Shown one piece after another: positions 2,459 to 36,599 of a DNA stretch of 64,000 nucleotides. The stretch lies in the NCBI GenBank assembly GCA_017618355.1, contig JAFZUL010000146.1, positions 4,704 to 68,703 on the forward strand. The letters run 5' to 3'. Origin of the DNA: Muribaculaceae bacterium (lineage in GTDB: Bacteria > Bacteroidota > Bacteroidia > Bacteroidales > Muribaculaceae). The notes under the pieces are model-generated. The model was not told the origin of the DNA and made no database searches. It worked only from the letters and a program-made list of their open reading frames with translations. A program made the position numbers and the translations under genes. The stretch's first letter is position 1, and each line of letters starts with the position of its first letter.

Positions 2459-5400
2459 CTACTTTCTACTCAACAGAATGTTATAAATCGCGGTGATGTC
2501 GGCAGCGGTAATTTCGCCGTCGCCATTCTGGTCGCCATTGACAACATGTGAGTAGTCGTCGTTGAGCAGCACGTTATAGAGAGCAGTGACATCGGCTGCA
2601 GTCACATTGCCGTCACCGTTCACGTCGCCTGGCATAGCCTGGGCTACTGTCAAAGTATATTTGGCGATGCCGTTGCCAGGAACATACAAATAGATAAGAA
2701 TCTCGTTGCTCTTGTCGCCCGGCACTGCGAGGCAGGGAGTGCTCATGGTGGTGCTGTTCACCACGCCCATGCCGTTCTCGGGCAGGGTCCACAGCACATT
2801 CATGCCAGCGAAATTGTCGCCGTCGGCGTTCATCGCCAAGCGGTAATTGTGCCCTTGGGCGGTCTGATAGTCGCCACTGGAATAGAGCAGGAAATGCTTG
2901 CCGCACAACTCAAAGGCGTCAATGCCATCACTGTTAGTGCCCTGTTTCATGAGCGCGCTATTGCCGTCAAAACTGTCGATAATAGCTCCAGTCTCAATGC
3001 TATATTTGGTGGGCTGAATGTTAGAGCCATGCACTATCACTTTGTCAGAATCTAACGCCTTGATGCGTGGTGAAGTGCCGAAATTGGCGGCACTGCCGGG
3101 ATAAAACGTCGCTACAGTAGTCACCTTGGTATCGGTGACGGTGCCGTTATGCAAGGTCCAGCGGATAATCACATTGTTGCGCGAAAGAGCGGCAAACACC
3201 TCGAAGTTTCCTGCCACCACGTCGCCACGCACGTCGATATGGTCAATGCGGCCCGACGCCTCGCTGGTCGAGAGTGTGGCGCGGAGTGTAACCGCACCAT
3301 CGCTGGGGTTCACGCTGTAAATCACAAGCGGAGTATTGTTGATTTTGAGCAACATGTTGCTGATGAGCAGATTGCCCGCGTCATCAACCAGCACGTTGTT
3401 GCAGGGAAAATAGTCGCCCTTAACCTCGGCAGGCAATTCGATGTCGCGTTGCCATTCTCCTGTCTTAGTGCTGTAGGCACGCAGGTAGCAGTCGGCGTCA
3501 GAGCTGTTGGCCGAACGCCCAGCCAAGTACAGGAGGTCGCCAAGCACCGTAAATGAGCGGTTGAACGAGCCATAATTCTCCTGCTCGAAGTTGCCGTAGT
3601 TGTTCTTCACCGAGCGTATCCAATTATTCGTAATCGACACACCGTCGATGGGAGCGTAGGTGTCGTTGTCCACATCTACCTTCTGGACATAGCCAGTCTC
3701 GGTGCTGCCAGTGGTAATGTTGGTGATGGTGAACGAGCGAGTCTCGCTAACGTTGGGGTCGCAGCCAGCTTTGGTAGTGCTCACGCGCCAGTAGTAAGTG
3801 CCTAAGCCAATGAGCGATATCACGCACTGGCTGGTAAGGTTTCCGTTCTCGCTCTGGAGATAGTTGACGGTCTTGACAATGTTGGTGAATGCCGCATCGC
3901 GGGCCACCTCAAGCTTGTAGGTATCGGCACCCACGTCGGTGATGACAAACTTGAAGTTGTCTTCAATCTCGGCGCCGTTTTCGGGATAGAGCAGCGTGGG
4001 CTGCGGAGCAAGGTCGCGCTGAATGGTCATGAACGACGCCACGTCGCTGAGCTTGTCGAACTTGCCAGTCTCGACCGTTGTCACACGCCAGTAGTAGCGG
4101 GTGGCCGAGGCGAGGCTGCTGAGGTCGAGCGTAATATGATTCTCGCTAATACCGCGCTCGGTGATTAGCACGTTGTTGAAATTCTCATCGCTGGCGACCT
4201 CTATCCTGAAGGTGGCGCCTTCGACAGCACTCCACGAGAACTCCTGAGACCACTCTGCCAGGGCATCGCCAACGGGAGCGATAAGCGTCACCTGCTGGGC
4301 CTCGCCAGCGGGTGCGTTGAGGTAGGCGGGAGTGTATTCGAAGTTATAGCCATCAACACTCGACACGGCAAACCAGTAACCTGTCAAATACTCACTGGCA
4401 AGGGTCACACTGGTGTTGTAGGTCACAGCCATCAGATAGTCGCTCTTGATGCCCTCGAACTGCTCGCTGGTGATGGTGCTCACGTCAACGCTGGTGGGAA
4501 TGGCGTAAACGGCATATTTCACCAGTTCGCCATCAACGAAATCCCACGACAGGGTGTTTCCGTTCAAAGCAAGGTTCTCGGGCGTGTCGAGGTTGTCTTT
4601 GGGTTTCCATTCGAGTGCTGGCGGCAGAGCCTTCTTCGGGAAGATGGTCTGCACCAAATAGTTACCGAGTCCTGTCATGCGCGGACCGTTGATGTAGCGC
4701 GACGAGTAGAAGTTCACGCCTGGCGCGTTGTTCTCGGTGTATTGACGGCTGAGCTGCACCTGAGCCACAATCTCCTGCCAACTGGCGGTGGTGTTGCCGT
4801 CGTTGTCCATGAAGTAGATGTTCTGGCTGGCGTAATGGTGACGCCCGAAGTGCTTGGCGATGTAGCTCCACCACTGGGTCAAGGGCCCGAAGGGGTTGGT
4901 CGTGTGGTTACGCTTCCAGTAGAGCTGTGGCGAGATGTAGTCGATGGTGCCTTCCTCGAGCCATGCCAACGGGTCGCTGAAGAGCGACGAGTACTGCCAG
5001 TCACTACCAGTGGGGCAAGGTGTCACGCCATGCTGCGACGCGCTGGTCGAGGCCGTTCCTGCCACACCTGCGGGGCCTATCGCAAAACGTACCTGAGGCT
5101 TAGTCATCTGAACCATATTAAACACGTCGGCAACCATCTGATTGACTTGAGCGCGGCGCCAGTTGGCAAAGCTCAGCGTGGTGCCGCTGTTGCGCCACAG
5201 CTGGTAGTCGCCAGCGCTGCTGTTGGTGGGTATGCCACTGGGATAGAAGTAGTCGTCGAAGATGATTCCGTCGATGTCGTAGTTCTCTATCATCTCGCGG
5301 CACACGTTCACTATGCGCTCTCGCGACTCCGGCAAGCCGGGGTTGAGCACCGTGGTGGTGGTTCCCGAACTGTTGGTGTAGGTGAGCAATATGCCCGAGT

Positions 5401-5851
5401 CACGCAACGCCTGATCCTGAGGGGTGTTCCATGTGTTTGGCCCGCCGTTGGCATAGCGGTAGGGGTTAACCCAGGCATGGCACTCGATGCCGCGCTTGTG
5501 GCACTCCTCCACGGCAAACGCCAATGGGTCCCAGCCAGGGTTAGTGCCGCGGCTGCCTGTAAGATAGCTCGACCAGGGCTCGTAGCTCGACTGATACATG
5601 GCGTCGCACATCGACCGCACCTGTATGCACACTGCATTCATGTTGGTGTTGGCGAAACCGTTGAGATAGTCTATCAGACCCTGTTTTTGGCGTGCTATCA
5701 CGCTTGCGTCAGTGCCTCGCTCGCTGGGCCAGTCGATGTTGGAAACGGTGGCGAGCCACGCGGCACGCATCTCTCGCTTCTGCTCCTCGGCCCTCAAGGC
5801 AGGAAACACCAGCGCAAGCATCATAATGAGAATTGTCAGTTTTTTTGCCAT
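2459..5851 (-). CDS. Secreted GHL10 glycosyl hydrolase + Fn3-like domains + beta-propeller-like region + C-terminal dockerin
   Basis: Signal peptide; REMRAAW, HAWVNPY, DGIIFDDYFYP and IDYISPQLYW motifs; YYWRV Fn3-like units; duplicated GDVNGDG/GDQNGDG dockerin at 2462-2629. Confidence 0.88.
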   Translation of the reverse strand: MAKKLTILIMMLALVFPALRAEEQKREMRAAWLATVSNIDWPSERGTDASVIARQKQGLIDYLNGFANTNMNAVCIQVRSMCDAMYQSSYEPWSSYLTGSRGTNPGWDPLAFAVEECHKRGIECHAWVNPYRYANGGPNTWNTPQDQALRDSGILLTYTNSSGTTTTVLNPGLPESRERIVNVCREMIENYDIDGIIFDDYFYPSGIPTNSSAGDYQLWRNSGTTLSFANWRRAQVNQMVADVFNMVQMTKPQVRFAIGPAGVAGTASTSASQHGVTPCPTGSDWQYSSLFSDPLAWLEEGTIDYISPQLYWKRNHTTNPFGPLTQWWSYIAKHFGRHHYASQNIYFMDNDGNTTASWQEIVAQVQLSRQYTENNAPGVNFYSSRYINGPRMTGLGNYLVQTIFPKKALPPALEWKPKDNLDTPENLALNGNTLSWDFVDGELVKYAVYAIPTSVDVSTITSEQFEGIKSDYLMAVTYNTSVTLASEYLTGYWFAVSSVDGYNFEYTPAYLNAPAGEAQQVTLIAPVGDALAEWSQEFSWSAVEGATFRIEVASDENFNNVLITERGISENHITLDLSSLASATRYYWRVTTVETGKFDKLSDVASFMTIQRDLAPQPTLLYPENGAEIEDNFKFVITDVGADTYKLEVARDAAFTNIVKTVNYLQSENGNLTSQCVISLIGLGTYYWRVSTTKAGCDPNVSETRSFTITNITTGSTETGYVQKVDVDNDTYAPIDGVSITNNWIRSVKNNYGNFEQENYGSFNRSFTVLGDLLYLAGRSANSSDADCYLRAYSTKTGEWQRDIELPAEVKGDYFPCNNVLVDDAGNLLISNMLLKINNTPLVIYSVNPSDGAVTLRATLSTSEASGRIDHIDVRGDVVAGNFEVFAALSRNNVIIRWTLHNGTVTDTKVTTVATFYPGSAANFGTSPRIKALDSDKVIVHGSNIQPTKYSIETGAIIDSFDGNSALMKQGTNSDGIDAFELCGKHFLLYSSGDYQTAQGHNYRLAMNADGDNFAGMNVLWTLPENGMGVVNSTTMSTPCLAVPGDKSNEILIYLYVPGNGIAKYTLTVAQAMPGDVNGDGNVTAADVTALYNVLLNDDYSHVVNGDQNGDGEITAADITAIYNILLSRK

Positions 5852-6092: not shown

Positions 6093-6237
6093 CAATGTGC
6101 CACAATGCGGTTTCATTGATTCATATAAGGCATTTGCATAAAAATGCTGACAAAAAACAATCACATATCATTTTAATATTTGCACAGTTAATATAAATTC
6201 CTTACTTTTGCACAATAAAACCAATAACGACGACAAT

Positions 6238-7734
6238 ATGAAAAAGACATTTTTTGCCGCACTGCTCATTGTGGCAGCAACGATAGGATATAACGCCAGT
6301 GCGATTAATGGCGACGTGAATGGTGATGGAGTGGTGACTGCCGCCGACGTGACGGCACTCTATAACTACCTCCTCAACGACGACACCAGCGACCTCGTCA
6401 ATGGCGATCAGAACGGCGATGGCGAAATCACCGCTGCCGACGTGACGGCTGTATATAACATTCTGCTCAATGGCGACCCCGACCCAGGGCTGCCCGATTT
6501 CACCATCAACGTGGTGTATAACGGCAACGAGGCGACTGTCACCGTAGCCAAGAACATACAGAGCCAGATGACAGTGGCGGTAAACGGCGCGCATGTCAAT
6601 ATCGTGGCCGATCCAGCTCTGCAAGACTCGTTAATCTACAACCTTAGCGGTTCAACCACCAACGGCTCATTCTATATGAATGGCGACTATAAGTGCTTTG
6701 TGAACCTCACTGACCTAAGCATACACAACCCCGACAGCGCAGCCATCAACATCGACAACGGTAAGCGCATAGACGTCACAATCAACGGCAACAACACACT
6801 CACCGATGCCACAGGCGGAGCGCAGAAGGCTTGCTTCTTCATCAACGGCCATGCCGTGATAGCAGGTTCGGGAACACTCACAATCACAGGCAACAGCAAG
6901 CACGCCTACTTCAGCGATGAATACACGCGCATCACTAGCGGCACCATCAACGTGACCAACTCGGTGAGCGACGGCTTCCATATCAACCAGTATTTCCAGA
7001 TGGATAACGGCACCGTGACCATCAACACTACCGGAGGCGACGGCGTTGACGTGGGGTGCACCAAAGACCCCACCGACACTAAGAACGGCGAGTTCATCAT
7101 GAACAACGGCACGCTCAACGTCACCACTACCGCCAATACCGTCAAGGCCATCAAGTGCGAGTCAATAATGACCATCGCTGGCGGCTCAATCACCGCAAGT
7201 ACTAGCGGAAACGCCGTTTATGACGCGACAGCAGACGACGTGAGCAGCTGTGCGGCAATCAAGTGCGACAGCACCTTCAATATGACTGCCGGCACCATTT
7301 ACCTCACCAGCACTGGTTTGGGCGGAAAGGGTCTGAACTCCGACGGCAGCGTGAACATCAGCGGTGGCACATTCACAGCCGTCACCACTGGCGACGTGTA
7401 TGAGTACTCCTCTACCCACGACACTAAAGCTGGCGGTGTCAAGGCCGACGGCGCCATCACCATCAGCGGCGGCACTGTGCGTGTGGCAGCAAGCAAATAC
7501 GATGCCCGAGCCTTCAACGGCGAGTGCGGATTCTTCACCAACGGCGGATACATCCTCGGCATTGGTGGCAAGTCTTCGACAGTGAGCCCGGGCTACACCC
7601 AGAAGTACAGGTACCTGCGCAACCAAGTTGTCACCGCCGGCAGCACCTACACCTGTGAGGGCATCTCATTCGAAATACCATCGATCTACAACAATGCCGC
7701 AGCACTGGTGGTGGTTTCTACCCCTAATATGTAA
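6238..7734 (+). CDS. N-terminal dockerin + DUF4353 (Cthe_2159-like) beta-helix carbohydrate-binding protein
   Basis: Signal peptide MKKTFF; dockerin at about 6310-6474; repeated 'GGTI.I.T....DGI' beta-helix motifs; TACTTTTG -7 box at 6203-6210. Confidence 0.85.
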   Translation: MKKTFFAALLIVAATIGYNASAINGDVNGDGVVTAADVTALYNYLLNDDTSDLVNGDQNGDGEITAADVTAVYNILLNGDPDPGLPDFTINVVYNGNEATVTVAKNIQSQMTVAVNGAHVNIVADPALQDSLIYNLSGSTTNGSFYMNGDYKCFVNLTDLSIHNPDSAAINIDNGKRIDVTINGNNTLTDATGGAQKACFFINGHAVIAGSGTLTITGNSKHAYFSDEYTRITSGTINVTNSVSDGFHINQYFQMDNGTVTINTTGGDGVDVGCTKDPTDTKNGEFIMNNGTLNVTTTANTVKAIKCESIMTIAGGSITASTSGNAVYDATADDVSSCAAIKCDSTFNMTAGTIYLTSTGLGGKGLNSDGSVNISGGTFTAVTTGDVYEYSSTHDTKAGGVKADGAITISGGTVRVAASKYDARAFNGECGFFTNGGYILGIGGKSSTVSPGYTQKYRYLRNQVVTAGSTYTCEGISFEIPSIYNNAAALVVVSTPNM

Positions 7735-9577: not shown

Positions 9578-12500
9578 ATGAGGAAGATTTTTACTTTCAT
9601 GGTGACGCTACTTGTGGCGATAGTTGGGCTAACTGCAATGGCTCAGGCTCCACAGACCGGCGTTTACCGCATTCAGAATGTCGGTGGCAATGATTATATC
9701 CAAGTCACTGGCAAGTATGATGCCCAACTTGTTTCTTCTCAGAGCGAAGCCAGTTACATCACTGTTGGCATCGAGAAGAAACTCAGCGATGGCACCTACA
9801 AAGTGAACTCGTTGTACTCAACCTACGATGGAGGAGAAGTCGAGGTGTACGACTATTTGACAAAAGCTCTGACACTTGGAGAGATTGAGCTTCGCCGTGA
9901 GCTTGAAGGCTCTTCGGGTGAGAATGTTCAAACTGCCATCAATCGTATGCATGAGCTTGCTCAAGAGTATGGTTTTATGCGCATGATGCCCGTTGACGGC
10001 CAGGCCGACACTTATCATGCAATAGCTGTACTTCCCACTATCCCAAGTGATATCGTAGAAGTTTGGCAAGCCAAGAAGAACCCTAACAATGACTACGAGT
10101 CTGAGATTACACATGGCAACACCATGTGGGACTGGTGCATAGACATTGTTTACCGTTATCTTGACGAGCACAGTGGTGAAGGCGGAACTAACGCTGCATT
10201 GGCAGCCAAGATTCGCAACAACCTTGCCAATATTCAGGAGGGATACACCTATATGCTCACCGAAGATACTGACGGTTCATTTGGCTACATCGAAACTGGA
10301 AAAAACATCAAAGATCCTGTAACTGGCGAGACTACAGTCAATCCTGCCACCCTAACTAGCGACAACAACCGCTCTTATTGGAAACTCACCCCCAAGGTGA
10401 ACAACGAGAACGTTAAAGACGGAACTTACAAAATTCGCAACATTGGTCAAAAGACATACGTTCGCATCCGCGGCAGATATTACGCTACTCCCGATGCCGA
10501 AGAGAGCGCTGCCAGCGACATCCGCATCACCTTCGACGGCAAGGCCAATGGCGGCCAGAAGATCATCAATCTGGGTGGAAAGTATGGTGACACAGACATC
10601 GATATCTACAAATACATAGAGAAGGCTATTTTCATTGGAAAGATGGCAATTTATGACGTGCTCACCGAAGGCACTGAGGCCAATCCCGCCAGTGGTGGGA
10701 ACATCGAGTATGCCCAGGAATATTTCGAGACCGAAGTCAAGAATGCCGCCTTTATGTGCATCAAACCAGTAGAGGGCAACGATGAGGCAGTTTATGCCTA
10801 TTTCACCCTTCCCCACATCCCCGAAGAGGCTATTTATCAGATGGCGCAACATGGCGCTATCGACCCGGATAATCCGACCGAGAAGGCTGCTTGGGAGTTT
10901 GGAGTAGGCAAGGTTATGCAATACCTCCAACAGCACAGCGGGCAAGGTGGCACCGACAACACACTCGCCAGCTATATCACTGCCAACATCGGCAAGCTTC
11001 GTCCCGGTGTGACCTACTATCTGGGCGCTGAGAATAACGGCACATTCGATTACTATCCCAAGTTTGAGAACCCCGATGAAGGCTGGAGCACCAGAAGCAA
11101 CGAAAACATCATCGACAAGTTCGACGACATCAAAGCTAACATCGATTACCAGTGGGGCTTCGACGTTAAGGACGTTGAGGAAGACAACCTCACTTCAGGC
11201 ACCTACAAAGTGCGCAACGTTGAGACTGGAGACTACGTTGAGGTGCTCAGCAAGTACTATGCTAAGCCCGACACTACCGAGGCTGGTGCTACTGAGATTC
11301 ATATAACTTATAGCGGCAAGCTCGACGATGGCAGCTACAAGGTTACCAATATGAGCGCGGTTGCTAAAGACGGCAGCATGTGCGACATCCAGAGCTATGT
11401 TGACAAGGCCATCAAGCTCGGCAAGATCGCTATCGCAGATGCACTTAAGGACATGTCTGATCCAGAGGACATCGCTTATGCCCAGCAATATATGGAAGAC
11501 TTCATTCGCGCCGCTGCTTTCATGCGCGTGAAGCCAGTTGTTGGCACTAACTATGTATATGCCATTGCCACTATTCCCGAGATTCCTTACGAGGTTTATC
11601 ATGAGATGTATCGCCATGGTGTAATTGAACATGACACCAAGGAGGATGCATGGGACTATGGCGTTCAAGTGGTTCAGGATTATCTTGGTAGTCACAACAC
11701 TGATGGCACACTTGCACAACTCATTAATAATCTCATTAATGATTCTGGCATTATTCAAGGCCACACCTATTATCTGAAAGAAGACGCCAACAAAACCTTT
11801 GGCTATGTTGATGCCGCAAACTTTAGTGCTGATGACAAGACTATTCAATGGGGTATCGATCTTGAGGAGGAAGACCAGCCAGTTGAGAGCGACTTCTACA
11901 AGATTCACAACGTGGGCAATGACAAGTATGTTAAGGTTTATGACCGTTACTATGCTAAGCCCGATGTTGATGAAGCCAACGCAACTCCAATCGCCGTGAC
12001 TATCGACGGCATGCTCGAGGACGGCTCAATGAAGGTCACCAACCTCGTGGGCGACGGACGCAACATCCAGAGTTATGTAGATCATGCGATTGAACTTGGC
12101 AATGCTCTTATTGATCAGCTTCTTGCTGGTGAGAACTCTCAATATGGACCATCTGATCCAGATAATATAGCAAGGGCTAAAGCCGCTATGGAATCGTTTA
12201 TTCGCGAGAACGCTTATATGCGTGTGAAACTCGTTCCTGGCGAGACCGATGCTTACTATGCTTATGTAACACTCCCAACCGTTCCCGATAGCATTGTTAC
12301 TGAATGGAGAAAGAAAGTGCCAGAAAGCGTATTCCCAGGTTCAATGCGCGATTGGGCAGTGCAGCAGGTTCTTAATTATCTCAACAACCATCCACAGGTT
12401 GACAATACACTTGCCGCTATGGTTCGCGCTAATATCAACCGCCTATATGAGGGTCACACCTACTACCTACGCGCCGACGGCGACGGCACATTCGGCTTTG

Positions 12501-14386
12501 CCGATGCCACTCTTAATGAGATGGACTTCAGCAACAGCAAAGCTGCCCAGCATTACTGGTGGGGCTTCGCCGATGCCATCAAGGCTGAGCCTGTAAGCGG
12601 ATACTTCCGCGTTAAGGGCGCTGACGGCAAGTATGTGAACGTCACTGGCAAGTTTGCCGCTACTCCTAACTTGGATGCAACTGCAGCCAAGACAGCAGCT
12701 GGTTCTGTAATCTACATCGGCACTGGCGAGACTAAGAACACCAAGACCTTGCCTCTCGACACTCTGCGCTCGCAAGGCGTTGATGTAGGTCAATACATGA
12801 CAATGCTTAATGATGTTCTTGGTGTTGTGGCCGGAACTGCAATTCAAGTAGCAACTGAGAAACTTGAAGACTCTAATTACAGCCAGTATGCTGGCTTGGT
12901 AGAGCCTCTGGCTCAGACTCTCCTTGAAAGCGTTGACCTCAACCTTTATGTTGAGCCAACTCTCACTAGCGATGGCAAAGAGGCCTATATGCTCGAGGTT
13001 AACATTCCTGACTTGGCTGAGTACTGCGACTTAGCACTCGATGCTCTAGAACTTATGGGCAAGACCCAAGCTGATCTCGTTCGCAAACTTGGCGAATTGG
13101 AGGCTGAAGCACAAGGAACAATGAAGACCCTCCTGGGTATTGCCAAGCGTGCTGCGCAATATCTTGATGATCCCGATACGATGTGGGAGAAACTTAAAGA
13201 GAACGCTATACCATACGTTCAAACCTACTTTATCGACAACTCATATGATGAGCAACTTGGTGTTTCAGGTGGGGTAATGAGTCAAGTTGGCCAGTTTATC
13301 CTCAATGCTCTGAACAATCCCGACTTCAACTATGGCACTACTTACTGCTTGCGTCAAGATGCCGACGGCACCTTTGGTTACGCTAGCCGTGAAAGTCTGG
13401 CAGATGTAGATGACGGCAAGTGGATACTCGAGCCATTCGATGAGCAAGATCCCAACTATGATGCCGAGAATTATATTCCATTCGTGGTTTCTACTGATTT
13501 CACACAGGAAACTTACACAAATGAACAAAATGTGGGTGTAACCAACGTAGGACCATCATACAACTTCACAACCACCTATCTTGACTTTGATGCCAAGATT
13601 GAGACTCAGAATGTGAAAGCATATAAAGTATCGAGTACCGAGAGAGTTGAGTCTTATGTTAAAGAGAATGGTCAAGTAGTACGTACTAATGTTTACTATA
13701 TTGCCCATCTTGAAGATGTAGATGTTACAAATGGCATTCCTGCTGCTACTCCAGTGGTTCTTAGGTCTGATGAGGGCGACACAGAGATTCAACTCCGCCC
13801 AATCAACAAGCCCGAGCATCCTGCAGTAGAAAGTGGCGAACTTGAAGCTGTGAAGGACAAAATCATTGAGTTGTTCCAGAATAAGGTTAATGGCATGACT
13901 ACACAAGGTGCACCATCGCCAAGAGCAATTTCAGAGGCAACAAACGACAGTCCACTCGTTGGCTCATACTTCAACGAAGAGGTTGATGCAAGTGACGCAA
14001 ATATTTATATGCCTCTTGCTAGCAAAACAAAACGTGAAGATGACTCATTTGCCCTTGACATGGAAGGTCTTGGATTCTGGAAAGACGGCATAACAGAGCT
14101 TGAAGGCAATAAGGCTTATATGTATGGTGTTGGCCAAGAGGAGTTTATGCCCAGAGAAACTTTTGAACAGGGAACAGTTGGAAGTGCTCCAGGTTATATT
14201 TTCCAGTATCCTGATGGAGATAACACCTTCACTCGCATTGAGAATGTGAGCACCATTAAGGAAGTGAAGTCTGTTCGCTACTACAACACTCTTGGTGTTG
14301 AGAGCAATACTCCTTTCGATGGCGTTAATGTTATCGTGACCACCTTTACTGATGGCACTCGTTCCACTGTCAAGGTTATAAAATAA
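9578..14386 (+). CDS. Large secreted protein with five ~240-aa internal repeats and a T9SS-type CTD
   Basis: Signal peptide; repeats begin near 9653, 10418, 11195, 11888 and 12596; ends YYNTLGVESNTPFDGVNVIVTTFTDGTRSTVKVIK; TATATTTG box at 9424-9431. Confidence 0.85.
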   Translation: MRKIFTFMVTLLVAIVGLTAMAQAPQTGVYRIQNVGGNDYIQVTGKYDAQLVSSQSEASYITVGIEKKLSDGTYKVNSLYSTYDGGEVEVYDYLTKALTLGEIELRRELEGSSGENVQTAINRMHELAQEYGFMRMMPVDGQADTYHAIAVLPTIPSDIVEVWQAKKNPNNDYESEITHGNTMWDWCIDIVYRYLDEHSGEGGTNAALAAKIRNNLANIQEGYTYMLTEDTDGSFGYIETGKNIKDPVTGETTVNPATLTSDNNRSYWKLTPKVNNENVKDGTYKIRNIGQKTYVRIRGRYYATPDAEESAASDIRITFDGKANGGQKIINLGGKYGDTDIDIYKYIEKAIFIGKMAIYDVLTEGTEANPASGGNIEYAQEYFETEVKNAAFMCIKPVEGNDEAVYAYFTLPHIPEEAIYQMAQHGAIDPDNPTEKAAWEFGVGKVMQYLQQHSGQGGTDNTLASYITANIGKLRPGVTYYLGAENNGTFDYYPKFENPDEGWSTRSNENIIDKFDDIKANIDYQWGFDVKDVEEDNLTSGTYKVRNVETGDYVEVLSKYYAKPDTTEAGATEIHITYSGKLDDGSYKVTNMSAVAKDGSMCDIQSYVDKAIKLGKIAIADALKDMSDPEDIAYAQQYMEDFIRAAAFMRVKPVVGTNYVYAIATIPEIPYEVYHEMYRHGVIEHDTKEDAWDYGVQVVQDYLGSHNTDGTLAQLINNLINDSGIIQGHTYYLKEDANKTFGYVDAANFSADDKTIQWGIDLEEEDQPVESDFYKIHNVGNDKYVKVYDRYYAKPDVDEANATPIAVTIDGMLEDGSMKVTNLVGDGRNIQSYVDHAIELGNALIDQLLAGENSQYGPSDPDNIARAKAAMESFIRENAYMRVKLVPGETDAYYAYVTLPTVPDSIVTEWRKKVPESVFPGSMRDWAVQQVLNYLNNHPQVDNTLAAMVRANINRLYEGHTYYLRADGDGTFGFADATLNEMDFSNSKAAQHYWWGFADAIKAEPVSGYFRVKGADGKYVNVTGKFAATPNLDATAAKTAAGSVIYIGTGETKNTKTLPLDTLRSQGVDVGQYMTMLNDVLGVVAGTAIQVATEKLEDSNYSQYAGLVEPLAQTLLESVDLNLYVEPTLTSDGKEAYMLEVNIPDLAEYCDLALDALELMGKTQADLVRKLGELEAEAQGTMKTLLGIAKRAAQYLDDPDTMWEKLKENAIPYVQTYFIDNSYDEQLGVSGGVMSQVGQFILNALNNPDFNYGTTYCLRQDADGTFGYASRESLADVDDGKWILEPFDEQDPNYDAENYIPFVVSTDFTQETYTNEQNVGVTNVGPSYNFTTTYLDFDAKIETQNVKAYKVSSTERVESYVKENGQVVRTNVYYIAHLEDVDVTNGIPAATPVVLRSDEGDTEIQLRPINKPEHPAVESGELEAVKDKIIELFQNKVNGMTTQGAPSPRAISEATNDSPLVGSYFNEEVDASDANIYMPLASKTKREDDSFALDMEGLGFWKDGITELEGNKAYMYGVGQEEFMPRETFEQGTVGSAPGYIFQYPDGDNTFTRIENVSTIKEVKSVRYYNTLGVESNTPFDGVNVIVTTFTDGTRSTVKVIK

Positions 14387-17312: not shown

Positions 17313-18587
17313 ATGATGTTATATAGGAAAATTCTTTTTTTGATTGTTGCGTTTTTGCCTTGTGTGGCTACCGCTCAGATGGCAGAAGATGTGAACCGTG
17401 ACAATTTCATCAATAGTGGCGACATCACCACGATTTATCGCTATATGCTTCACGGCGCAGACCAGTTTGCCGATAACTGCGATGTGAACGGTGACGGTGT
17501 AGTTACAGCGAGAGACATCACTTCCATTTACGACTACATGTTGTGGCGTGACACCAGCAATGACCGCCGCATGAGTTTCCTGCACATAAGCGACACCCAC
17601 AGTGTTGACGTGACTCTCGCTCCTGCTCTTGAGATTCTCAATAGCGACCCCACCTTCAGCTTCATGATACTCACTGGCGACTTTTTACCCACCGAGACGA
17701 TGATTCAAGAGGTGCTAGCAAGCGAGAAACCAGTATTTGTCATTCCTGGCAACCACGATGCATGGAACGAAGGAGATGTCACTTATTCTTATGGGCAACA
17801 AGGCTTCCGTGAACAGGTACTGAACCGCCTCTATCCCAATGGTGAGGTAAACTTTGGTGACGACATTGCCAACTTTTTCTATGCCGACGTGACGCAAAAC
17901 GACTGCACTATACGCGTAATTGGCCTCGACCTCTACGATTTTGCCAATATGGGCAAACCTGTTGTGATGAATAGCGTGGTGTTCTCGCAAAAGCAGATTG
18001 ACTGGCTGATTGATGTGCTTGAAAACAGCGGTGACAAAGACGGAGTGATAATAATGACCCACAACGGGTTTGGAAATTCTCTTCAGAACACAAGAGACCC
18101 CAACTATGTAAATGAATTCATCTCAATTAATGCTTACGCTTGGTGGGATACTTATAACTATTTTGGTGACGGTGATGCAATACTTATTCCAAGCATTGTA
18201 GAGGCCTATATGACCGGGGATGACCTTACTGATGCTCAATTCAAAAGCGGTCACAAAGTAAATAAGGTGTCACAAATGATTAATGTGACAACCCATTTCA
18301 ATGAGCCTCACAACAATTTCATCGCTTACTATGGCGGGCATGTGCATTTTGATGTAGTGGAGTACCTTAGTGAATACCCCAATCAATTAATGAGCATTAT
18401 TGCTTATGGTGGGCGTGGTAAAGGCAATAATTTGAACGACCTTATCAAAACCAATACTGGCGTGGACAGCTACACCATCAATGCCAGCAATATCAACTTT
18501 ACTACTCATGAACACAAAATTGTTCGTTTGGGTTCACAAAGGAAAGATGATGGCACCCTGCGTGAAAGCATCCTATTCAACTTTTGA
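17313..18587 (+). CDS. N-terminal dockerin + calcineurin-like metallophosphoesterase
   Basis: DVNRDNFINSGD/DVNGDGVVTARD loops; HISDTH, TGDF, GNHD and GHVH motifs. Confidence 0.85.
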   Translation: MMLYRKILFLIVAFLPCVATAQMAEDVNRDNFINSGDITTIYRYMLHGADQFADNCDVNGDGVVTARDITSIYDYMLWRDTSNDRRMSFLHISDTHSVDVTLAPALEILNSDPTFSFMILTGDFLPTETMIQEVLASEKPVFVIPGNHDAWNEGDVTYSYGQQGFREQVLNRLYPNGEVNFGDDIANFFYADVTQNDCTIRVIGLDLYDFANMGKPVVMNSVVFSQKQIDWLIDVLENSGDKDGVIIMTHNGFGNSLQNTRDPNYVNEFISINAYAWWDTYNYFGDGDAILIPSIVEAYMTGDDLTDAQFKSGHKVNKVSQMINVTTHFNEPHNNFIAYYGGHVHFDVVEYLSEYPNQLMSIIAYGGRGKGNNLNDLIKTNTGVDSYTINASNINFTTHEHKIVRLGSQRKDDGTLRESILFNF

Positions 18588-23100: not shown

Positions 23101-26100
23101 TCCAGTAGTGATTGTCAATTGTGTTGGCTCAACCAGCAATGTTGGATTCAACACTTCACCATAAACAATTACTGAGGTAGCTGCCTCTCCACTAGTAAGA
23201 TTTATTTCACCAATGTAGCTGTCCTTTGCAGGTGGAGTGAAAGTAACTGTTACCACATAGCCATCGGCTGCTTCGGCTTCTTCAATGGTAATGCTGTTGT
23301 GGTCAATTGAGAATGCATTATCCTCATTTTCGCCAAATGTTGCAGTAATACCAGTTGCTAGGTATTGGCCTTTAACTGTGAATGTAGCAGTTGCCGAACG
23401 ACCAATTCCCGTTTGTATGGTAAGCTCGCTGGGGGTAGCAGTAATTGATGGAGGCATAACATGTCCACTGAGGTTTACCACAACACTTTCGGCCTTATTG
23501 CTCGACAGTGTCACACTGCCTGTGTATTCACCTGTCGCTTGCGGTGCAAAGGTAACGTTCACGGTATAACCATTATCACCCTCAGCTTGCTCTATTGTGA
23601 TGTTTGTTGGATTAATGGTAAACACTCCATTAGCATCGGCAAGCGTCGCCGTGATTGGGGATATCAGATTCTCGCCCGCAACTATAAAACTTGCAGTTGC
23701 AGTGCCGCCCACTTTCGACTCTAGTCTCAGCGTGGTTGGGTCGGCAATGAGTTCTGGAGCGAGAACAGCACCAGTAATTGGAATATTTACCGAGCTTGCT
23801 TCACTGCTACTCAATTTTATTTGACCTGAATAGGAACCCAAATCCGTTGGGATATAGGTCACAGTAATATTATAGCCATTATTGCTTTGGGCCTGACTAA
23901 CGGTAATATTTGTTGTGTTTATTGAGAACACATTATCGCCAGTGAGAGTTGCTGTAATGTTACCCTTTAGGTTCGCACCCTTGACATTAATGGTCTTGGT
24001 TAAAGTTTGACCTATCTTGCCCTCAAATGACAGGCTTGTGGGATTGGCTGTTATAACAGGAACTATAGTCGTCGATGTACCTGTTATTGCTACCGAAGCA
24101 GTGCCGGCACCAGTGCCAACAGTAGTAAAGTTCAGAGTAGCAGTTGTTGTTCCTGCCGCTGTTGGGTTGTAAGTCACAGTTACGGTGTAACCTTGTGTGG
24201 CTTGACTGGCAGTTATGGTCGTTGGCGACACCGAGTACATACCATTGCCACCGCTTATTGATGCAGAAACATTTCCCTGCAAGTTGGTTCCTGTAATGGT
24301 AACTGTTTTAGTATAAGTCTCTCCAGTGTTACCTGTGAATGTCAAACTTGTTGGGCTAGCAGTCAACGCTGGAGCATTGTATTTACCCTTACCAGTGAGC
24401 GAAACAGTCACGGTTGTGGCATTGGTGCTTGTCAAGGTTACTGTGCCGTTATAGGTAGCACTGGTGTTGGCAGTAGGGCTAAATGTGACAGTCACAGTAG
24501 CACTTGCTGTTCCATTGCTATTTTTAGTGATTGAGGTCTTATCAATCGTAAAATTGTTGCCACTCTTGGATAATGAAATATTGCCCTCAAGGTTCTGGCC
24601 TGTAACAGTAAATGTCTTTGTTGTAGTAGTCCCTGCCGTTATCTCTCCAAAATCAAGACTTGTGGGATTGGCCGCAATAACTGGAACATTCTGAGGACAG
24701 ATATAAGCTATACCAGCCAGAGCGTCGATTTTGCCGTTACCAAAGTGGCTAGCATTTGCGCCACCGTCAGTATAATTGTCATGGATGGCTGTTTCAGCCA
24801 TGATGGTCTTAACATCGTTTACAGTAAGACCATTGGGATAGTTTTGCTTGCCAGCGTCGGTGTTAGCAGCCTGCATCCACAATGCAACTATACCTGCAGC
24901 GGTCGGGGTAGCCATTGAGGTGCCTTCCATATAAGCATATGGGTTGGTAGAGCTATTTACTACCAAGTCGCCACTGTAATTACTGCCATAATAGCTATAG
25001 TTATCAACTGATGCAGTATGATTATGGTTCACACCGGCGATGAGGCGAGCTCCAGGAGCGGTAATCCATGGGTAGTACTGTCCTGTGAGGCTAGTGGAAG
25101 TTGTGCCCCAACTTGAGAAATCGGCAATGTCACCAATGGTGTAGCTGGTGTTCATGCCGCCATTTTTGGTCGCGTATGCACCAATAGAAATCACATTAGA
25201 TATAGTTGCCTCGTCACTGTAGCAGCCATCATCGGTACCAGCCGTCCAAGTATAACCACTTGTCGAGAGGTAATTGGTAAAGTAACCATAAGAACCTCCC
25301 CAAACATCAATCACAGAGCTACCACTTGATGGCGCAAACTCTACAGCGAGAGTGTAATTACTCTTATAGTAGGTACTCCCATTCTGTGTCGTAGTAGAAG
25401 TACTACGTGATGTAAGACCAGAGGTATAAAGCATTATCTGGGTTTTGTTAGAACTTACATAGTTCTTGTAGGCATAAAGCGAACCACTGAAATAAGAACT
25501 CAGCCCAGAAACACTTGCACCATTAGTGGTAGGATTAACAGTCACCGTTGTTAAAACTGCTCCAGTGTTTGCATTAAGAACATATATTTTACAAGTCATA
25601 TTGCTCACACTCGTTGAGCGTGCCCAAGCGTTAGCTATTATACCATAGTAATAATATCCCGCATCAGTGTTGGTATAGGATGCTGAACGCAAGATAGATC
25701 TTAACGGGCTTGAACTTGAGGCGGTACCTGTTAAGTGATAACCACCACCCTCGTTGTCCTTGCTCTTGCCGCCATCATTTGATGCAGCGAAAAGAACCAC
25801 ACGATTAGGATGGCTGGCACCAAAGTAGCTATTATAAATGTCGGCAATGTCACCAGTGCCATCATGGGGACCAAACTGTGATCCCCAGCTGTTGCTTACC
25901 ACAAGAGGTTTGCCTTGCTGGTCAGCGTAAGTAATAATTTTGCTGAGAGCGTTCGACAGATAAGTGTCGTTCAAGCCATTGATGCCAGCAAGATAGAGGT
26001 CGGCACCAGGCGCCATGCCGCCGTACGTGGCATTGGCGTGATTGTCGGTGACGGTGACATTGCTTCCACTAACAATCACACTTGAACCACCAGCGGTAGA

Positions 26101-26823
26101 ACTGGTGTGAGTGCCGTGGTCTTCGCTTTTGTCATCAGTAAGAGTAGAGCTTGAGATAGATGAATACTCTTGAGCCGAGCTACCATTATACACATACGCC
26201 TTCTTGATGCGGCTGTTGCCATCTTTGTCCTTAAAGGCAATGTGGTTGAAGTCGATACCAGTGTCTATCACGCCTAGCACCACTCCGCTACCGTCGAAGG
26301 CGCTGGGCAGACCTGCCGACTGGGCATCGGCACTGTAGGTGAGAACATCATCCACATTGGTCTTCTGACGAGCAGTGTTAGTAGATTTCCGCATCAAGGT
26401 AGCAGCTTTCACACTCTTTACCGAGGCAATGGCTGCCACTTCCTCAATCTTATCAACAGGGATAAGGGCAGTAACGAGCTTGCCGTCAAGGAACTGTTCT
26501 TGAATTTCAACACCCAGCGACTCAAGTTTACCTATCGCTGCAGGGTCTTCCAAACGCACGAAAGCCGACATGTAGTTCTGACCGTTGACAACAACAGGAT
26601 CGGCCACAAACTGGCTCTCTTTCTCTGCAGCCTCAAAGGTTCCTGCAACTGGCTTCAAACCAGCAGCTTTAGCTTTTCTGAGGTTTTCTTGATCCACTTG
26701 GATTGTTCCGTTCAGTTTGTCCAGGAAAATCTGTGTGGAAATCGACAGCTTGCTGACATCTTGTCCTAAAGCTATCGCTGTCGCCGAGATAGCGACAATG
26801 AAAAACAATAAAATTTTCTTCAT
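20107..26823 (-). CDS. S8 subtilisin-like protease with tandem choice-of-anchor-D/ASH-like Ig repeats and a T9SS-type CTD
   Basis: Catalytic triad VIDTG, HGTHT, GTSMA; about 8 repeats 'P.I.A.PTSL.F...TF.V.G.NL...VTF.P...Y.G.VTL'; CTD; -7 box TACTTTTG at 26886-26893. Confidence 0.92.
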   Translation of the reverse strand: MKKILLFFIVAISATAIALGQDVSKLSISTQIFLDKLNGTIQVDQENLRKAKAAGLKPVAGTFEAAEKESQFVADPVVVNGQNYMSAFVRLEDPAAIGKLESLGVEIQEQFLDGKLVTALIPVDKIEEVAAIASVKSVKAATLMRKSTNTARQKTNVDDVLTYSADAQSAGLPSAFDGSGVVLGVIDTGIDFNHIAFKDKDGNSRIKKAYVYNGSSAQEYSSISSSTLTDDKSEDHGTHTSSTAGGSSVIVSGSNVTVTDNHANATYGGMAPGADLYLAGINGLNDTYLSNALSKIITYADQQGKPLVVSNSWGSQFGPHDGTGDIADIYNSYFGASHPNRVVLFAASNDGGKSKDNEGGGYHLTGTASSSSPLRSILRSASYTNTDAGYYYYGIIANAWARSTSVSNMTCKIYVLNANTGAVLTTVTVNPTTNGASVSGLSSYFSGSLYAYKNYVSSNKTQIMLYTSGLTSRSTSTTTQNGSTYYKSNYTLAVEFAPSSGSSVIDVWGGSYGYFTNYLSTSGYTWTAGTDDGCYSDEATISNVISIGAYATKNGGMNTSYTIGDIADFSSWGTTSTSLTGQYYPWITAPGARLIAGVNHNHTASVDNYSYYGSNYSGDLVVNSSTNPYAYMEGTSMATPTAAGIVALWMQAANTDAGKQNYPNGLTVNDVKTIMAETAIHDNYTDGGANASHFGNGKIDALAGIAYICPQNVPVIAANPTSLDFGEITAGTTTTKTFTVTGQNLEGNISLSKSGNNFTIDKTSITKNSNGTASATVTVTFSPTANTSATYNGTVTLTSTNATTVTVSLTGKGKYNAPALTASPTSLTFTGNTGETYTKTVTITGTNLQGNVSASISGGNGMYSVSPTTITASQATQGYTVTVTYNPTAAGTTTATLNFTTVGTGAGTASVAITGTSTTIVPVITANPTSLSFEGKIGQTLTKTINVKGANLKGNITATLTGDNVFSINTTNITVSQAQSNNGYNITVTYIPTDLGSYSGQIKLSSSEASSVNIPITGAVLAPELIADPTTLRLESKVGGTATASFIVAGENLISPITATLADANGVFTINPTNITIEQAEGDNGYTVNVTFAPQATGEYTGSVTLSSNKAESVVVNLSGHVMPPSITATPSELTIQTGIGRSATATFTVKGQYLATGITATFGENEDNAFSIDHNSITIEEAEAADGYVVTVTFTPPAKDSYIGEINLTSGEAATSVIVYGEVLNPTLLVEPTQLTITTGVNKPKTATFTVMGQYLAGPVTATLSDANGVFSIDNNNISIEQAENEDGYTATVTFTPTVYSESNYTGTITLSTPSGDSQTVSLIGKVNEPEMVVDPESLIFSTDINTSTTKTIDVLGADLVGNVTVTLNDPSGVFTINPETITAEDAEEGAMVNVTFQSATDGIYTGSVTFTTEGVDPITVTLSATASDGGTASDDYLNVAKYATIDEAGMGDYTGTYLYKYTEYDNDGVAWLTLPAYGAHLAAADQGWITSGVTAVTTTYGSWSATDIFKGNTEYGTNGATYYVRNGTSYTTQTMTYFVTNCTQVKVYGYNESASGNRTYPAYLYIYECTKNADGTITAANATTDQESFSTKSSNFTLTSIALDESKIYKVVVSTTKSRVYEIGFKTPLNKPILTVSPAQVAMRANPGETYSTTVNVKARMLSDNVTVTLSDPSNVFAVSAQSIAMAEAESGTDITVTFSAPEYEGTFTGTVTLTSGTLTTTVSLKGVCAAGGTASDLYLDIAKCATIDEAGATVSGMSTIYKYIEYEDDNVGWLTLSSYGAMKADANQNWLTTTSLSQYNNSWNANDVFQGQSSYFGSSQAYSIYGSGNQTFYVTNCTQVKAYVKGGNNSTSNATLAIYECAENADGTITVSTSAVDSKQGTTGVIASATLDPRMIYMVRLTGGGSYPDFLEIGFCTPLPTKVTLAQIANEPSIVVGKEYRIVDENLIAAYVGNDEKTIYCKDDNGYNNPVEMQAGQTDFMKSHGWHTGSWDQSNWIVLNVPEGKDLTQVPIKHKLKGVRGVLVNKVNPTLNLTKLPTNGEMTSVSLNDYLATNFDPSMMALTGDYFFVPAKPMEVVNVWWAMWDAGKDQFVVASPVYNSVGTIDGAFYADFSLYNDPSHAVGTLEDGGVYNFTGFGHLNVNKVNNTTKNVMPLDEEAPTGFVVYPLDNWVRMDVDDDGTITSINGIFTDGYREVVGVEYVNGMGMTSDKPFQGLNIVVTRYSDGTHTAVKKIFK

Positions 26824-33507: not shown

Positions 33508-34215
33508 CTACTTGTAAAGCAGAAATATGGTTGGCACCTTATTGAGATCGGGCAGTTGTTTGAGCCACTGCTTCACACCTCGTGTGATGATGCGCTCGCC
33601 AGATCCAGTGATGTCGGTGGCGATGCAAAGCTTGATGTGTGGCGGCATAGTCTTGCAAATCTCACAGACTAAAGCATTGTTGCGATAAGGCGTCTCGATG
33701 AAAATCTGCGTCTGATCCTCGCGCATGATGCGCAGCTCCATCTCCTTAAGCTTTCGAGAGCGTTGAGCCGAGTCGATAGGCAGATATCCCAAGAAGGCGA
33801 AACTCTGACCATTGAAGCCCGAGCCCATAAGCCCCATGAGTATGCTCGATGGCCCCACCAGTGGCTTAACCTTTAGCCCACGGCTTTGGGCTATCGCCAC
33901 CACGTCAGCTCCAGGGTCGGCAACGGCAGGGCATCCAGCTTCGCTGATTACACCCATTGGCTCGCCACCCATAAGTGGCATAAGCATCGCTGGGATATCC
34001 TCCGACTTAGTGTGTCGGTTGAGCTCATAGAAGGTGAGCGTGTCGATGTCGATGCTCCGGTCGCACTTCTTTAGAAACCGCCGAGCCGAGCGCACGTTCT
34101 CTACGATAAAGTGCTTAATCTCTTTAACGATTTGAACGTTGCTCTGCGGTAACACGGTGTCGAGCTCAACATCGCTGAGCTGCACAGGAATCAAATATAG
34201 AGCCGCCTCGATCAT
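33508..34215 (-). CDS. Tetrapyrrole-methylase family SAM-dependent methyltransferase (RsmI-like)
   Basis: SEAGCPAVADPG, GPSSI and FIETPYRN motifs. Confidence 0.85.
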   Translation of the reverse strand: MIEAALYLIPVQLSDVELDTVLPQSNVQIVKEIKHFIVENVRSARRFLKKCDRSIDIDTLTFYELNRHTKSEDIPAMLMPLMGGEPMGVISEAGCPAVADPGADVVAIAQSRGLKVKPLVGPSSILMGLMGSGFNGQSFAFLGYLPIDSAQRSRKLKEMELRIMREDQTQIFIETPYRNNALVCEICKTMPPHIKLCIATDITGSGERIITRGVKQWLKQLPDLNKVPTIFLLYK

Positions 34216-34367: not shown

Positions 34368-36599
34368 TTAACTTCCCAGAAGGATGTTGTAAATGAATGT
34401 CACATCGGCAGCAGTAATCTGGCCATCGCCGTCAACATCACCATTAACTATGCCCTCGTCATTATTGTTGAGCATGTAGTTGTAAAGCAATGTCACATCG
34501 GTAGCCGTCACCTCACCATCGCCGTTAACGTCGCCAGGGATTATAACTATTGGGCTGAGCTCACCGTTGTGATAGATAGTGAAGTCATCGAGATAGCCCG
34601 CCAAGCTAGTAGAACCTGCGGTGCATGCCACACGGTAGCGCGCAGGCACCTGAACTGTGATGGGGAAGCAAATGGTGCTTTTCTTATTTGGCGCTGCAAC
34701 CACAGTGGTGTTGTTCAAAGCGTTGGGTTGTACGGTCCAAGTCTGTCCCTGGTCGGTTGACATGTAAAGCTGAAGGTTGGTGTTGATGTTGGTCGGGTTA
34801 TAGAAATCGAAGGAGACCATATAAGTATCGTAAGCCACATCGCTTGTCATGGTGGCAGTGCTCGGCTTTTTCATAGCCACCGCAAGGTTGCCATTGCAGA
34901 GTGTATTGTCGGCAGGCGAGGCGGGGAAACACTTGGCGAGAGTCCAAGTGGCTAATGAACCTTCGTCACTTATAGTTGCGTTATTAGACGTTTTAGGAGT
35001 CATAGGCTCAAAGTCCTCGACTGCAGTAACAAAAGTACCATCTAACTTGACCGAGAACTTCACCACATCGCCTTCCTCATGTATATTGTAAAGGTTATAT
35101 TGATTGGGCTTGTTGCCCCAAGCCTTTAGGTTAGGCTGGGTCTCGTTTGTTATCATTGTCACACCACGAGTGCCGGGGAACGGGTCTGTGGGCGACTGCT
35201 GGGCGGACGAACCACCAGCACGCAGCAACTCGTAATAAAGTCGGTTGGCGTTGCCGTTAGGCTTATTGCCAGTCCACACACTAGTGTTAGTTGAGTCCAT
35301 ACGAGCGATAGTCATACCATGACCGGGTGCGTAGGCATCCCACTTGGTAGAAGTCTGACGATTGTCAATAAGGAACACCTCTTTGTTAGTGGGTGTCTTT
35401 AAGATATAGCCTTCACCGGTAGTACTTGTGGGATTAAGGGTGTATTCACCTTCAGCAGTAATAATCTGATAGTTGGCAAAGCCGGTGGAATAGCGGTCAT
35501 ATAGGCTGTAGGCCACTGGTGTGCGGGCATTGTTTTGATAGTTTCCTCCAGCCATAAGATCCCACTCTCCAGGGTGCTGTGCCTCGCCGTTGGTTCCATC
35601 GTCACTATCATCAGTGTCGTAAAGGTCGGGCAATCCTAGCACATGGCTGAACTCGTGGCAGATGGTACCGATGCCATCAAAGATACCATAGCTCTTGGCG
35701 TAAATATACTCGGCAGAGCAAGCATAGTCACGAATATACTTGCCGTCATATTTTGTGTAGGTATAGAAACTCGAACGGTGTGGCCAAATGTGATTAGGGC
35801 TACTGCTGTCACTGCTAGATGGAGTATCAGCATAGATAAAGTATATAAGGTCAACAGCACCGTTATTGTCAAGGTCATACTGGCTGAAATCTACTGTCGG
35901 GTTGGCTTTCTGAACTGCGTTTAAAAAAATGTTATAAGCATATTGATTGCCTTGATCAACATTATAGTTCACCTCAAAAGGACCCACCACATCAAACTGA
36001 GGCACGAAGATGCCGTTACTATTGTCGTTAAAATAGTCACGCACACTACCAGTGCAGGCACCGTATTGGTTGGGAGTACCATCCTCGTTGGTATAGCCAC
36101 TGTAGTTCTCTTGGTTAATCATGTTGCTGTAGAAATCCAGAACATCGCTACGTGTGAAATGCGAGTCTTTAAACTCAACAAGTATCACCAAACCGTGGAA
36201 ATTGTTGTAATTGATACTGTTGAGATGGGGCAACGCGTCGCGTTGCGCACGAGCACGGATACTTTGAGCCACCTGACGCTCTGAGCGCAGGTTCTTGCCA
36301 GTGGATAGCAGCCATGCATTGTCGCTAACTGAGCGCAGGTCGGCGTCACGAGCAACGATTGTAGAGGCTACGACCTCATCATTGACAAGAGTGCCATAGG
36401 TATAAAAACCTTGCTCGTTCTTGATGATTGTATAGCCATCAACGGTAGTCAAATAGTGAAAGAACTCATCACCCTTGATTCTCACGTCAAGTTCCTCGCC
36501 GTTGGGTTGAGTCACTTTCTGTGGAGTAGGAATTGCAGGCACTGCATTTGCTACCAAGCATGTCAGTGCACAAAATAAAGCAAAAAATAATTTCTTCAT
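34368..36599 (-). CDS. M6 (immune inhibitor A) family metalloprotease with C-terminal dockerin
   Basis: AVPA.P...QPNG....GDE propeptide; CHEFSHVLGLPDLYD; WDLM; dockerin at about 34371-34535; start corrected to MKKLFF. Confidence 0.92.
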   Translation of the reverse strand: MKKLFFALFCALTCLVANAVPAIPTPQKVTQPNGEELDVRIKGDEFFHYLTTVDGYTIIKNEQGFYTYGTLVNDEVVASTIVARDADLRSVSDNAWLLSTGKNLRSERQVAQSIRARAQRDALPHLNSINYNNFHGLVILVEFKDSHFTRSDVLDFYSNMINQENYSGYTNEDGTPNQYGACTGSVRDYFNDNSNGIFVPQFDVVGPFEVNYNVDQGNQYAYNIFLNAVQKANPTVDFSQYDLDNNGAVDLIYFIYADTPSSSDSSSPNHIWPHRSSFYTYTKYDGKYIRDYACSAEYIYAKSYGIFDGIGTICHEFSHVLGLPDLYDTDDSDDGTNGEAQHPGEWDLMAGGNYQNNARTPVAYSLYDRYSTGFANYQIITAEGEYTLNPTSTTGEGYILKTPTNKEVFLIDNRQTSTKWDAYAPGHGMTIARMDSTNTSVWTGNKPNGNANRLYYELLRAGGSSAQQSPTDPFPGTRGVTMITNETQPNLKAWGNKPNQYNLYNIHEEGDVVKFSVKLDGTFVTAVEDFEPMTPKTSNNATISDEGSLATWTLAKCFPASPADNTLCNGNLAVAMKKPSTATMTSDVAYDTYMVSFDFYNPTNINTNLQLYMSTDQGQTWTVQPNALNNTTVVAAPNKKSTICFPITVQVPARYRVACTAGSTSLAGYLDDFTIYHNGELSPIVIIPGDVNGDGEVTATDVTLLYNYMLNNNDEGIVNGDVDGDGQITAADVTFIYNILLGS

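Follow-up and report, generated by a model that had tools for sequence, protein, structure and literature searches.

Dockerins in place of T9SS tails and lipid anchors in a Muribaculaceae genome: a probable cohesin–dockerin surface display system

Introduction

Proteins that carry a signal peptide alone end in the periplasm, and to our knowledge the cargo of the T9SS (type IX secretion system) is considered to require a C-terminal signal of its own. The stretch of DNA analyzed here, 64,000 nucleotides of a Muribaculaceae bacterium (assembly GCA_017618355.1, contig JAFZUL010000146.1; hereafter the window, coordinates 1-64,000), encodes five proteins that have a signal peptide and a dockerin and no T9SS C-terminal domain (CTD). 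This locus raises the question of what the dockerins bind and how the proteins bearing them might reach the cell surface. The original prediction, made from the letters of the window, had proposed that the dockerin is either an alternative sorting or piggy-back tag or the means of assembling a protease and lytic-enzyme complex for scavenging or lysing microbial biomass; of these, piggy-back export and biomass scavenging stay tentative here.

On balance, we favor a T9SS-anchored cohesin–dockerin surface display system, though with odds only modestly better than even; in it, the dockerins probably attach a coat rich in proteases, amylases and adhesins to the surface of the cell. To pass the outer membrane, the dockerin cargo would need an undescribed route, and carriage by the cohesin proteins is the most likely one. 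That it hitch-hikes through the T9SS on carriers combining a cohesin with a CTD is a tentative proposal, to which we give somewhat less than an even chance. In the following, G000 denotes the assembly of this genome (2.9 Mb, 89.5% complete) and C a contig number in it.

Dockerin proteins of the window and the genome

The five dockerin proteins are a GHL10 (DigH-like) hydrolase of 1130 aa (2459..5851, minus strand; C-terminal dockerin at 2462-2629), a Cthe_2159 (DUF4353) carbohydrate-binding protein (6208..7734, plus strand, likely ATG at 6238; N-terminal dockerin at 6310-6474), a metallophosphoesterase (17313..18587, plus strand; N-terminal dockerin at 17385-17546), a 392-aa protein of unknown function (18641..19819, plus strand; C-terminal dockerin at 19652-19816), and an M6 metalloprotease (34368..36632, minus strand, likely ATG at 36599; C-terminal dockerin at 34371-34535). 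Thus, the dockerin is C-terminal in three of the five, with 0-1 residues after it, and N-terminal in two. A second GHL10 protein (927 aa, G000:C66:4247-7030) has its 5′ part at window positions 1..2327 on the minus strand; its C-terminal dockerin lies just beyond the window edge, and it is the sixth dockerin protein touching the window. For the 392-aa protein, a weak CarboxypepD_reg-like lead was obtained, and the leads of the Atlas search were all under 0.9.

All five modules exceed the cut-off of Pfam Dockerin_1 (PF00404, E 4.5e-9 to 8.2e-13), and a profile built from eight dockerins matched type I dockerins of known structure (best E 8e-13). With the modelled M6 dockerin (pLDDT 92.8) as query, a structure search of 48,161 chains placed dockerins at ranks 1-14, the best match having a Z of 9.1 and a root-mean-square deviation (rmsd) of 1.5 Å over 57 residues. 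Neither the two calcium loops nor the two helices vary, which is also the case in dockerins that bind cohesins. Every one of the five proteins has a Sec signal peptide, as judged by sequence reading and a pattern. As for CTDs, TIGR04183 gave no match on them and two CTD models of our own gave at most 1.9 bits, with type B and C CTDs on window proteins covered through the NCBIfam and Pfam scans only; cryptic CTDs were ruled out, the tails being unscored by both CTD models. The original prediction was therefore correct in placing five dockerins here on proteins without a CTD.

The genome-wide census that it had suggested as a check gave 109 dockerin, 3 cohesin and about 68 CTD proteins. The dockerin is C-terminal in 82 of the 109 dockerin open reading frames (ORFs), N-terminal in 18 and internal in 9 (the PF00404 scan gave 112 matches, with 150 of 179 candidates scored), and a signal-peptide pattern fits 90 of the 99 ORFs having an intact 5′ end. 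CTD-like tails were called with our two hidden Markov models (HMMs) at E ≤ 0.05, a few being borderline. A dockerin and a CTD occur together in only 3 proteins. Two of these are the cohesin anchors described below, and the third, the only one without a cohesin, is an Amidase_3 protein (G000:C68:5004-7610). The claim that dockerin and CTD are mutually exclusive thus holds for 106 of the 109 dockerin proteins.

The Pfam scan of cargo families covered 105 of the 109 proteins. It found 13 proteases (5 S8, 6 C10 and 2 M6), and among lytic and carbohydrate enzymes 3 amidases, 3 GHL10, 4 GH13, 2 GH53 and 1 GH18; the other cargo includes 4 NAGPA, 8 CotH and about 20 LRR proteins, one SusD and one endonuclease. 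CBM26 is present in 2 further dockerin proteins beside the 4 GH13 amylases. The expected richness in proteases and lytic enzymes was thereby borne out.

Two observations concern subsets of this cargo. One is that the eight dockerin proteins of the CotH-kinase family (on G000:C15, C38, C117, C142 and C150; one with a double dockerin) make up an extracellular kinase set. Another is that three adjoining dockerin proteins at G000:C83:1-4484 carry another dockerin subtype (DIADVN-like versus TAADVT-like), which is also found in more distant genomes and was possibly acquired and possibly has another specificity.

Dockerin replaces CTD or lipobox among homologues

In the GHL10 family, dockerin and CTD occur at the same place. 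Among 84 GHL10 ORFs from 79 loci (from the best 80 of 94), 66 have a dockerin at their end, 9 a CTD and none both, while 6 are cut off and 3 were left unscored; by eye, the last three are one dockerin protein, one with a CTD-like tail and one short ORF. The GHL10 body reaches the same junction in the two forms. The closest loci within the best 80 of 94 come mostly from ruminant gut metagenome-assembled genomes (MAGs), some labelled Sodaliphilus, which is the putative genus here; homologue names likewise point to the Muribaculaceae. All 8 GHL10 homologues of four congeners without dockerins have a CTD at their end (7 scored, 1 by eye), as do all 16 complete M6 protease homologues (18 in all) of these genomes. 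In a tree of 87 GHL10 domains, the starred branches force at least three switches, in both paralogue groups, on a midpoint root that sets no direction for them.

Similar relationships were found for other proteins. The 392-aa protein has five homologues: four with a CTD-like tail, of which one comes from a genome rich in dockerins, and a fifth with a dockerin. Within G000, 41 of the 109 dockerin proteins have a CTD-only paralogue (E ≤ 1e-10), many of them through shared repeats; pairs alike over most of the body are found for M6 (49% identity, with the paralogue at C41:6658 ending in a CTD) and S8 (78% over 1004 aa, the maximum). For the metallophosphoesterase, a single homologue in 150 family genomes was too few for a comparison.

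The replacement extends to lipoproteins. In the best 120 of 699 SusD homologues, 22 combine an N-terminal dockerin with the lack of a lipobox, and the other 98 have a lipobox (79 by pattern, 19 by eye) but no dockerin. Replacement of a lipid anchor as a rule for all N-terminal dockerins was rejected: it holds for SusD and fails for the Cthe_2159 protein of the window. The SusD protein of this genome (G000:C134:57072-59804), which lies behind an N-terminal dockerin and has no lipobox, has SusF/SusE-like domains in its homologues, and no SusC was seen among the printed neighboring ORFs.

The dockerin takes the place of other surface signals, namely the CTD and the lipobox. Its exchange with the CTD at one and the same boundary supports the proposed role as an alternative sorting tag.

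Cohesin proteins as receptor candidates

The window contains no cohesin, as had been stated; the genome, in contrast, has three cohesin proteins, two of them with a CTD, so the receptor that was described as unidentified now has named candidates. PF00963 found one of the three, a two-sequence HMM found only its seeds, and a richer HMM found all three. All lie outside the window: two tandem LRR-dockerin-cohesin-CTD proteins, referred to as anchors (G000:C150:29871-31877 and 31973-33985; TIGR04183 above cut-off in both), and a cohesin-X-dockerin protein (G000:C19:11600-13486). Only the anchor at C150:29871 exceeds the PF00963 cut-off, the other two cohesins being detected by our own HMM only. 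The cohesins span residues 482-612 of C150:29871, 486-615 of C150:31973 and 22-158 of C19:11600. A look for RNA runs covering the anchor locus gave none.

For the first anchor, the last 258 residues have a confidently predicted fold (pLDDT 92.9). Its cohesin matched solved cohesins in Foldseek (E 6e-10) and superimposed on a type I cohesin with a Z of 16.0 and an rmsd of 1.9 Å over 130 residues. In the sequence search of PDB, the best cohesin (E 0.0025) appeared among DARPin noise; since that search was uninformative, the cohesin identity was settled by the fold searches. The predicted complex of the C150 anchor cohesin with the M6 dockerin and calcium scored 0.19 against a mark of 0.32, with unfolded controls, and was used neither for nor against binding.

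The search for T9SS components covered SprA, PorV, PorQ, PorU and PorP. All five are encoded in the genome, PorU by three genes and PorQ by a gene of the window, and SprA is present in 24 of 24 congeners. The PorU genes are nearly in tandem (G000:C150:12519 to about 24457), all exceed the NF033707 cut-off, and the triplet lies 5.4 kb upstream of the two anchors.

Distribution in the genus and beyond

Dockerins occur in 22 of the 24 congeners (24 to at least about 120 matches each), and cohesins occur in exactly these 22. Sixteen other families gave 0-1 dockerin match. Among 120 genomes of the family, cohesin was found in 35 and dockerin in 37, with dockerins outside the genus never exceeding 6.

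Forty cohesin loci were taken from the match table, the second 20 being picked for ORFs of about 650-730 aa. In 19 of these second 20, an LRR-dockerin-cohesin-tail protein is present (18 with a scored CTD); including G003 and G014, it is found in 21 of the 22 dockerin-rich congeners, so that a cohesin protein with a layout suited to cell anchoring is kept across the genus. In G014 (99% complete), with at least 115 dockerin matches, the only cohesins are the 2 of this layout. The first 20 loci show anchor-adaptor gene pairs. The pair reads passenger-(cohesin)-dockerin-cohesin-CTD, then signal peptide-(cohesin)n-dockerin with n of 1, 2, 3 or 6, and the multi-cohesin proteins of the congeners have 2, 3 or 6 cohesins. 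A homologue search also gave scaffoldin-like proteins with a signal peptide, 3, 4 or 6 cohesins, one C-terminal dockerin and no CTD; one of them, P0060, has only cohesin and dockerin families and no CBM3.

In a tree of 71 cohesins (140 columns), the pre-CTD, middle and adaptor cohesins cluster by class, with 3 changes as compared with 28.8 in shuffled data. The anchor dockerins are mostly unlike the cargo dockerins and form their own sequence class. Thus, at least two sequence classes of dockerin and three of cohesin exist. Elsewhere in the order, a cohesin match was seen in 12 of 200 other genomes, and G314, of another family, gave 21 cohesin matches, several of them in ORFs of 1,200-3,800 aa.

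Surface display and its alternatives

In the course of events that we propose, the cargo would be exported by Sec and would fold in the periplasm in a calcium-dependent manner. There it would meet its carrier through the predicted dockerin–cohesin binding, and would cross the outer membrane as the passenger of the cohesin-CTD carrier. PorU would cleave the CTD of the carrier and link the carrier to lipopolysaccharide (LPS) (PMC11969387). The carriers' own dockerins and, in relatives, the adaptors with 1-6 cohesins could amplify the display, whose role may be the digestion of protein, starch and microbial cell material together with adhesion. The cargo stems from surface proteins and no longer has a route or anchor of its own, while the lineage retains a T9SS along with one or two cohesin-CTD proteins; joint crossing is the simplest account. 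The T9SS has been described as moving folded and very large proteins, and Tat is known to export by hitch-hiking (PMC9251779). Types A, B and C are the signals described for the T9SS (PMC10202324). In its full form, the proposal is that more than 100 folded CTD-less proteins pass SprA as non-covalent passengers on cohesin-CTD carriers, which would be a fourth entry into the T9SS, that the carriers then serve as LPS-linked anchors, and that the dockerin replaced the T9SS tail and the lipoprotein anchor secretome-wide; we regard this as possible, at a little short of even odds.

Several results weigh against the display system or its export step. The overlap of dockerin and CTD equals chance over all 2,221 genes (3 seen, 3.2 expected), and on that basis their exclusivity lacks significance; against rough pattern sets the overlap is depleted, with 9.1 expected for 557 signal-peptide-like genes (P 0.01) and 11.8 for the 291 such genes of at least 400 aa (P 4e-4). 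The 109 dockerin proteins face only 3 cohesin domains in G000, and the multi-cohesin scaffoldin of relatives was not found there by tblastn (in a genome 89.5% complete). Each anchor examined has a dockerin just before its cohesin, with a linker of 9-10 residues in G000, and in the tree the pre-CTD cohesins make up a separate group; hence, the anchor cohesins may be filled by the dockerin of their own chain. As the four congeners without dockerins belong to a single lineage, they count as about one event. Of the five Cthe_2159 homologues in dockerin-free genomes, three are complete with a signal peptide only, one is cut off and one has a CTD. Cohesins do not imply a cargo system, since the cohesin-bearing genomes of the family outside the genus have at most 6 dockerins. 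Finally, a literature search, with most subscription journals outside its coverage, found no published T9SS passenger export; it also found no paper on the replacement of a CTD by a dockerin, and no mention of this system was encountered in PMC5830445 or PMC9763041.

Some of these points would suit a dockerin that is itself the export or sorting signal, recognized by another receptor or a T9SS shuttle, with the cohesins occupied in cis or serving a small sub-assembly. That the CTD is replaced one for one at a single junction and that dockerin and cohesin are adjacent in all anchors agrees with this, as do the small number of cohesins that a genome has (2 in G012, G014 and G022) and the uniformity of the dockerins (median 65% identity to the window GHL10 dockerin within G000, versus 44-45% for those of distant GHL10 homologues). 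We nevertheless consider it unlikely. The dockerin is N-terminal or internal in 27 of the 109, which does not resemble a C-terminal signal, and it is helical whereas type A CTDs are beta-sheets (PMC11969387). Cohesins track dockerins in 24 of 24 congeners, and relatives have cohesin-only adaptors without a CTD. A second PorV-family gene of the window was considered as a dedicated dockerin shuttle and ruled out, being an ordinary PorQ.

Slightly less probable still is that the cargo bypasses the T9SS, staying periplasmic or being released by outer-membrane vesicles or lysis, with the cohesins capturing part of it afterwards. The fate of proteins with a signal peptide alone and the three complete Cthe_2159 homologues that have nothing else speak for it, but the homologues of the cargo belong to surface classes (CTD proteins and a SusD lipoprotein), LRR adhesins and CBM26 amylases have their substrates outside the cell, and the 13 proteases, 3 amidases and 3 GHL10 hydrolases would probably be risky in the periplasm. 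A receptor-free module that binds calcium, associates with itself or binds substrate, and that spread by recombination, would fit the excess of dockerins over cohesins and the uniform sequences, as near-identical DNA cassettes could spread themselves. This is improbable, as it leaves the loss of CTD and lipobox and the co-occurrence of cohesins in the genus unexplained, and the calcium loops and helices are kept invariant as in dockerins that bind cohesins.

Last, a canonical cellulosome or amylosome for plant fiber is contradicted by the cargo census and has very little probability. It would account for true cohesin and dockerin folds, for the 6-cohesin scaffoldins of relatives and for the 4 amylases and 2 further CBM26 proteins. 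However, no GH5, GH9 or GH48 was found among the 105 scanned dockerin proteins; in all of G000 no GH5 exceeds the cut-off and the single GH9 has no dockerin. A GH48 search of the genome gave no match, but none in any control genome either. GH13 proteins make up 4 of 105, a small minority rather than the dominant share of an amylosome. This is a cohesin–dockerin kind of system and, by the cellulase test, not a cellulosome, so that the original description as non-cellulosomal stands.

Comparison with known systems

The cellulosomes of Clostridium/Acetivibrio and Ruminococcus flavefaciens and the amylosome of R. bromii share with the present system the type I-like cohesin and dockerin folds, the anchor-adaptor hierarchy and about a hundred dockerin proteins, and the cohesin tree classes resemble their specificity classes. 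They differ in that the envelope here is Gram-negative, with a T9SS CTD anchor in place of SLH or sortase, and in that there are no dockerin cellulases and no CBM3 on the scaffoldin-like proteins here. A case in the same family is the rumen Muribaculaceae C941, which we take to be Sodaliphilus. In it, dockerins were described as prevalent with GH13 and were reported without cohesin (PMC9863278). The family and the combination of dockerin and GH13 are the same, whereas a cohesin was found here; as PF00963 finds only one of the three cohesins of G000, the misses in C941 may be explained. Dockerins of rumen Bacteroidetes have also been noted and read as cellulosome potential (PMC6071333).

In Ca. 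Stygibacter (Cloacimonadota), a CTD scaffoldin and dockerin enzymes were proposed as a cellulosome-like complex (PMC8542988). It is likewise diderm, with C-terminal dockerins on signal-peptide enzymes (there GH18, amylase, and S8 and C25 peptidases), a cohesin protein with a CTD for surface attachment and non-cellulose substrates, all by MAG inference. Unlike the present case, it has a single CBM-bearing scaffoldin of 3,755 aa together with a few enzymes; here there are some 110 cargo proteins, LRR anchors with one cohesin each, adaptors that are separate and lack a CTD, and dockerin-for-CTD or dockerin-for-lipobox swaps. Section 7 of that proposal is silent on how CTD-less cargo crosses the outer membrane (PMC8542988). 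Canonical T9SS cargo resembles the present cargo in its proteases, LRR adhesins and amylases, in using the same machine and in the short CTDs, found here on anchors and neighbors; it differs in that 106 of 109 proteins here have no CTD of their own, and the signal types described in these sources include no dockerin (PMC10202324, PMC11969387).

About 110 surface proteins (7.7% of the assembly) appear to have been rewired from a CTD or lipid anchor to a dockerin, which makes passenger export through SprA directly testable. If true, the proposed system would account for the orphan dockerins of rumen Bacteroidota MAGs and correct the cellulosome reading, and it would provide a plug-and-socket display tool for Gram-negative gut bacteria.

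Other genes of the window

Four neighbors of the dockerin genes carry a short T9SS CTD and no dockerin, as had been predicted: a 1602-aa protein (9578..14386, plus strand), a 919-aa protein (14484..17243, plus strand), a 2238-aa S8 protease with Ig (choice-of-anchor D) repeats (20107..26823, minus strand) and a small protein (50346..50933, minus strand). Their C-terminal tails of about 50 residues are missed by Pfam and by NCBIfam TIGR04183; in hhalign, a profile of these tails aligns with this genome's tails of TIGR04183 type (probability 95%, E 2.7e-8). They fit the short CTDs of Prevotella intermedia, 43-55 residues long, which were experimentally found to be cleaved and glycosylated (PMC11969387). 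Elsewhere in the genome, two proteins of about 107 aa (G000:C44:4318-4644 and C151:20011-20331) contain little beyond a signal peptide and a CTD.

The PorQ gene, for the barrel of the T9SS attachment complex, lies at 41347..42381 on the plus strand (NF033711, E 3e-116). Positions 54571-61289 encode an arginine deiminase, an aldehyde dehydrogenase, an ornithine carbamoyltransferase and an amino-acid-kinase-family protein, and an aminotransferase III gene is found at 50924; these amino-acid catabolism genes fit a proteolytic lifestyle.

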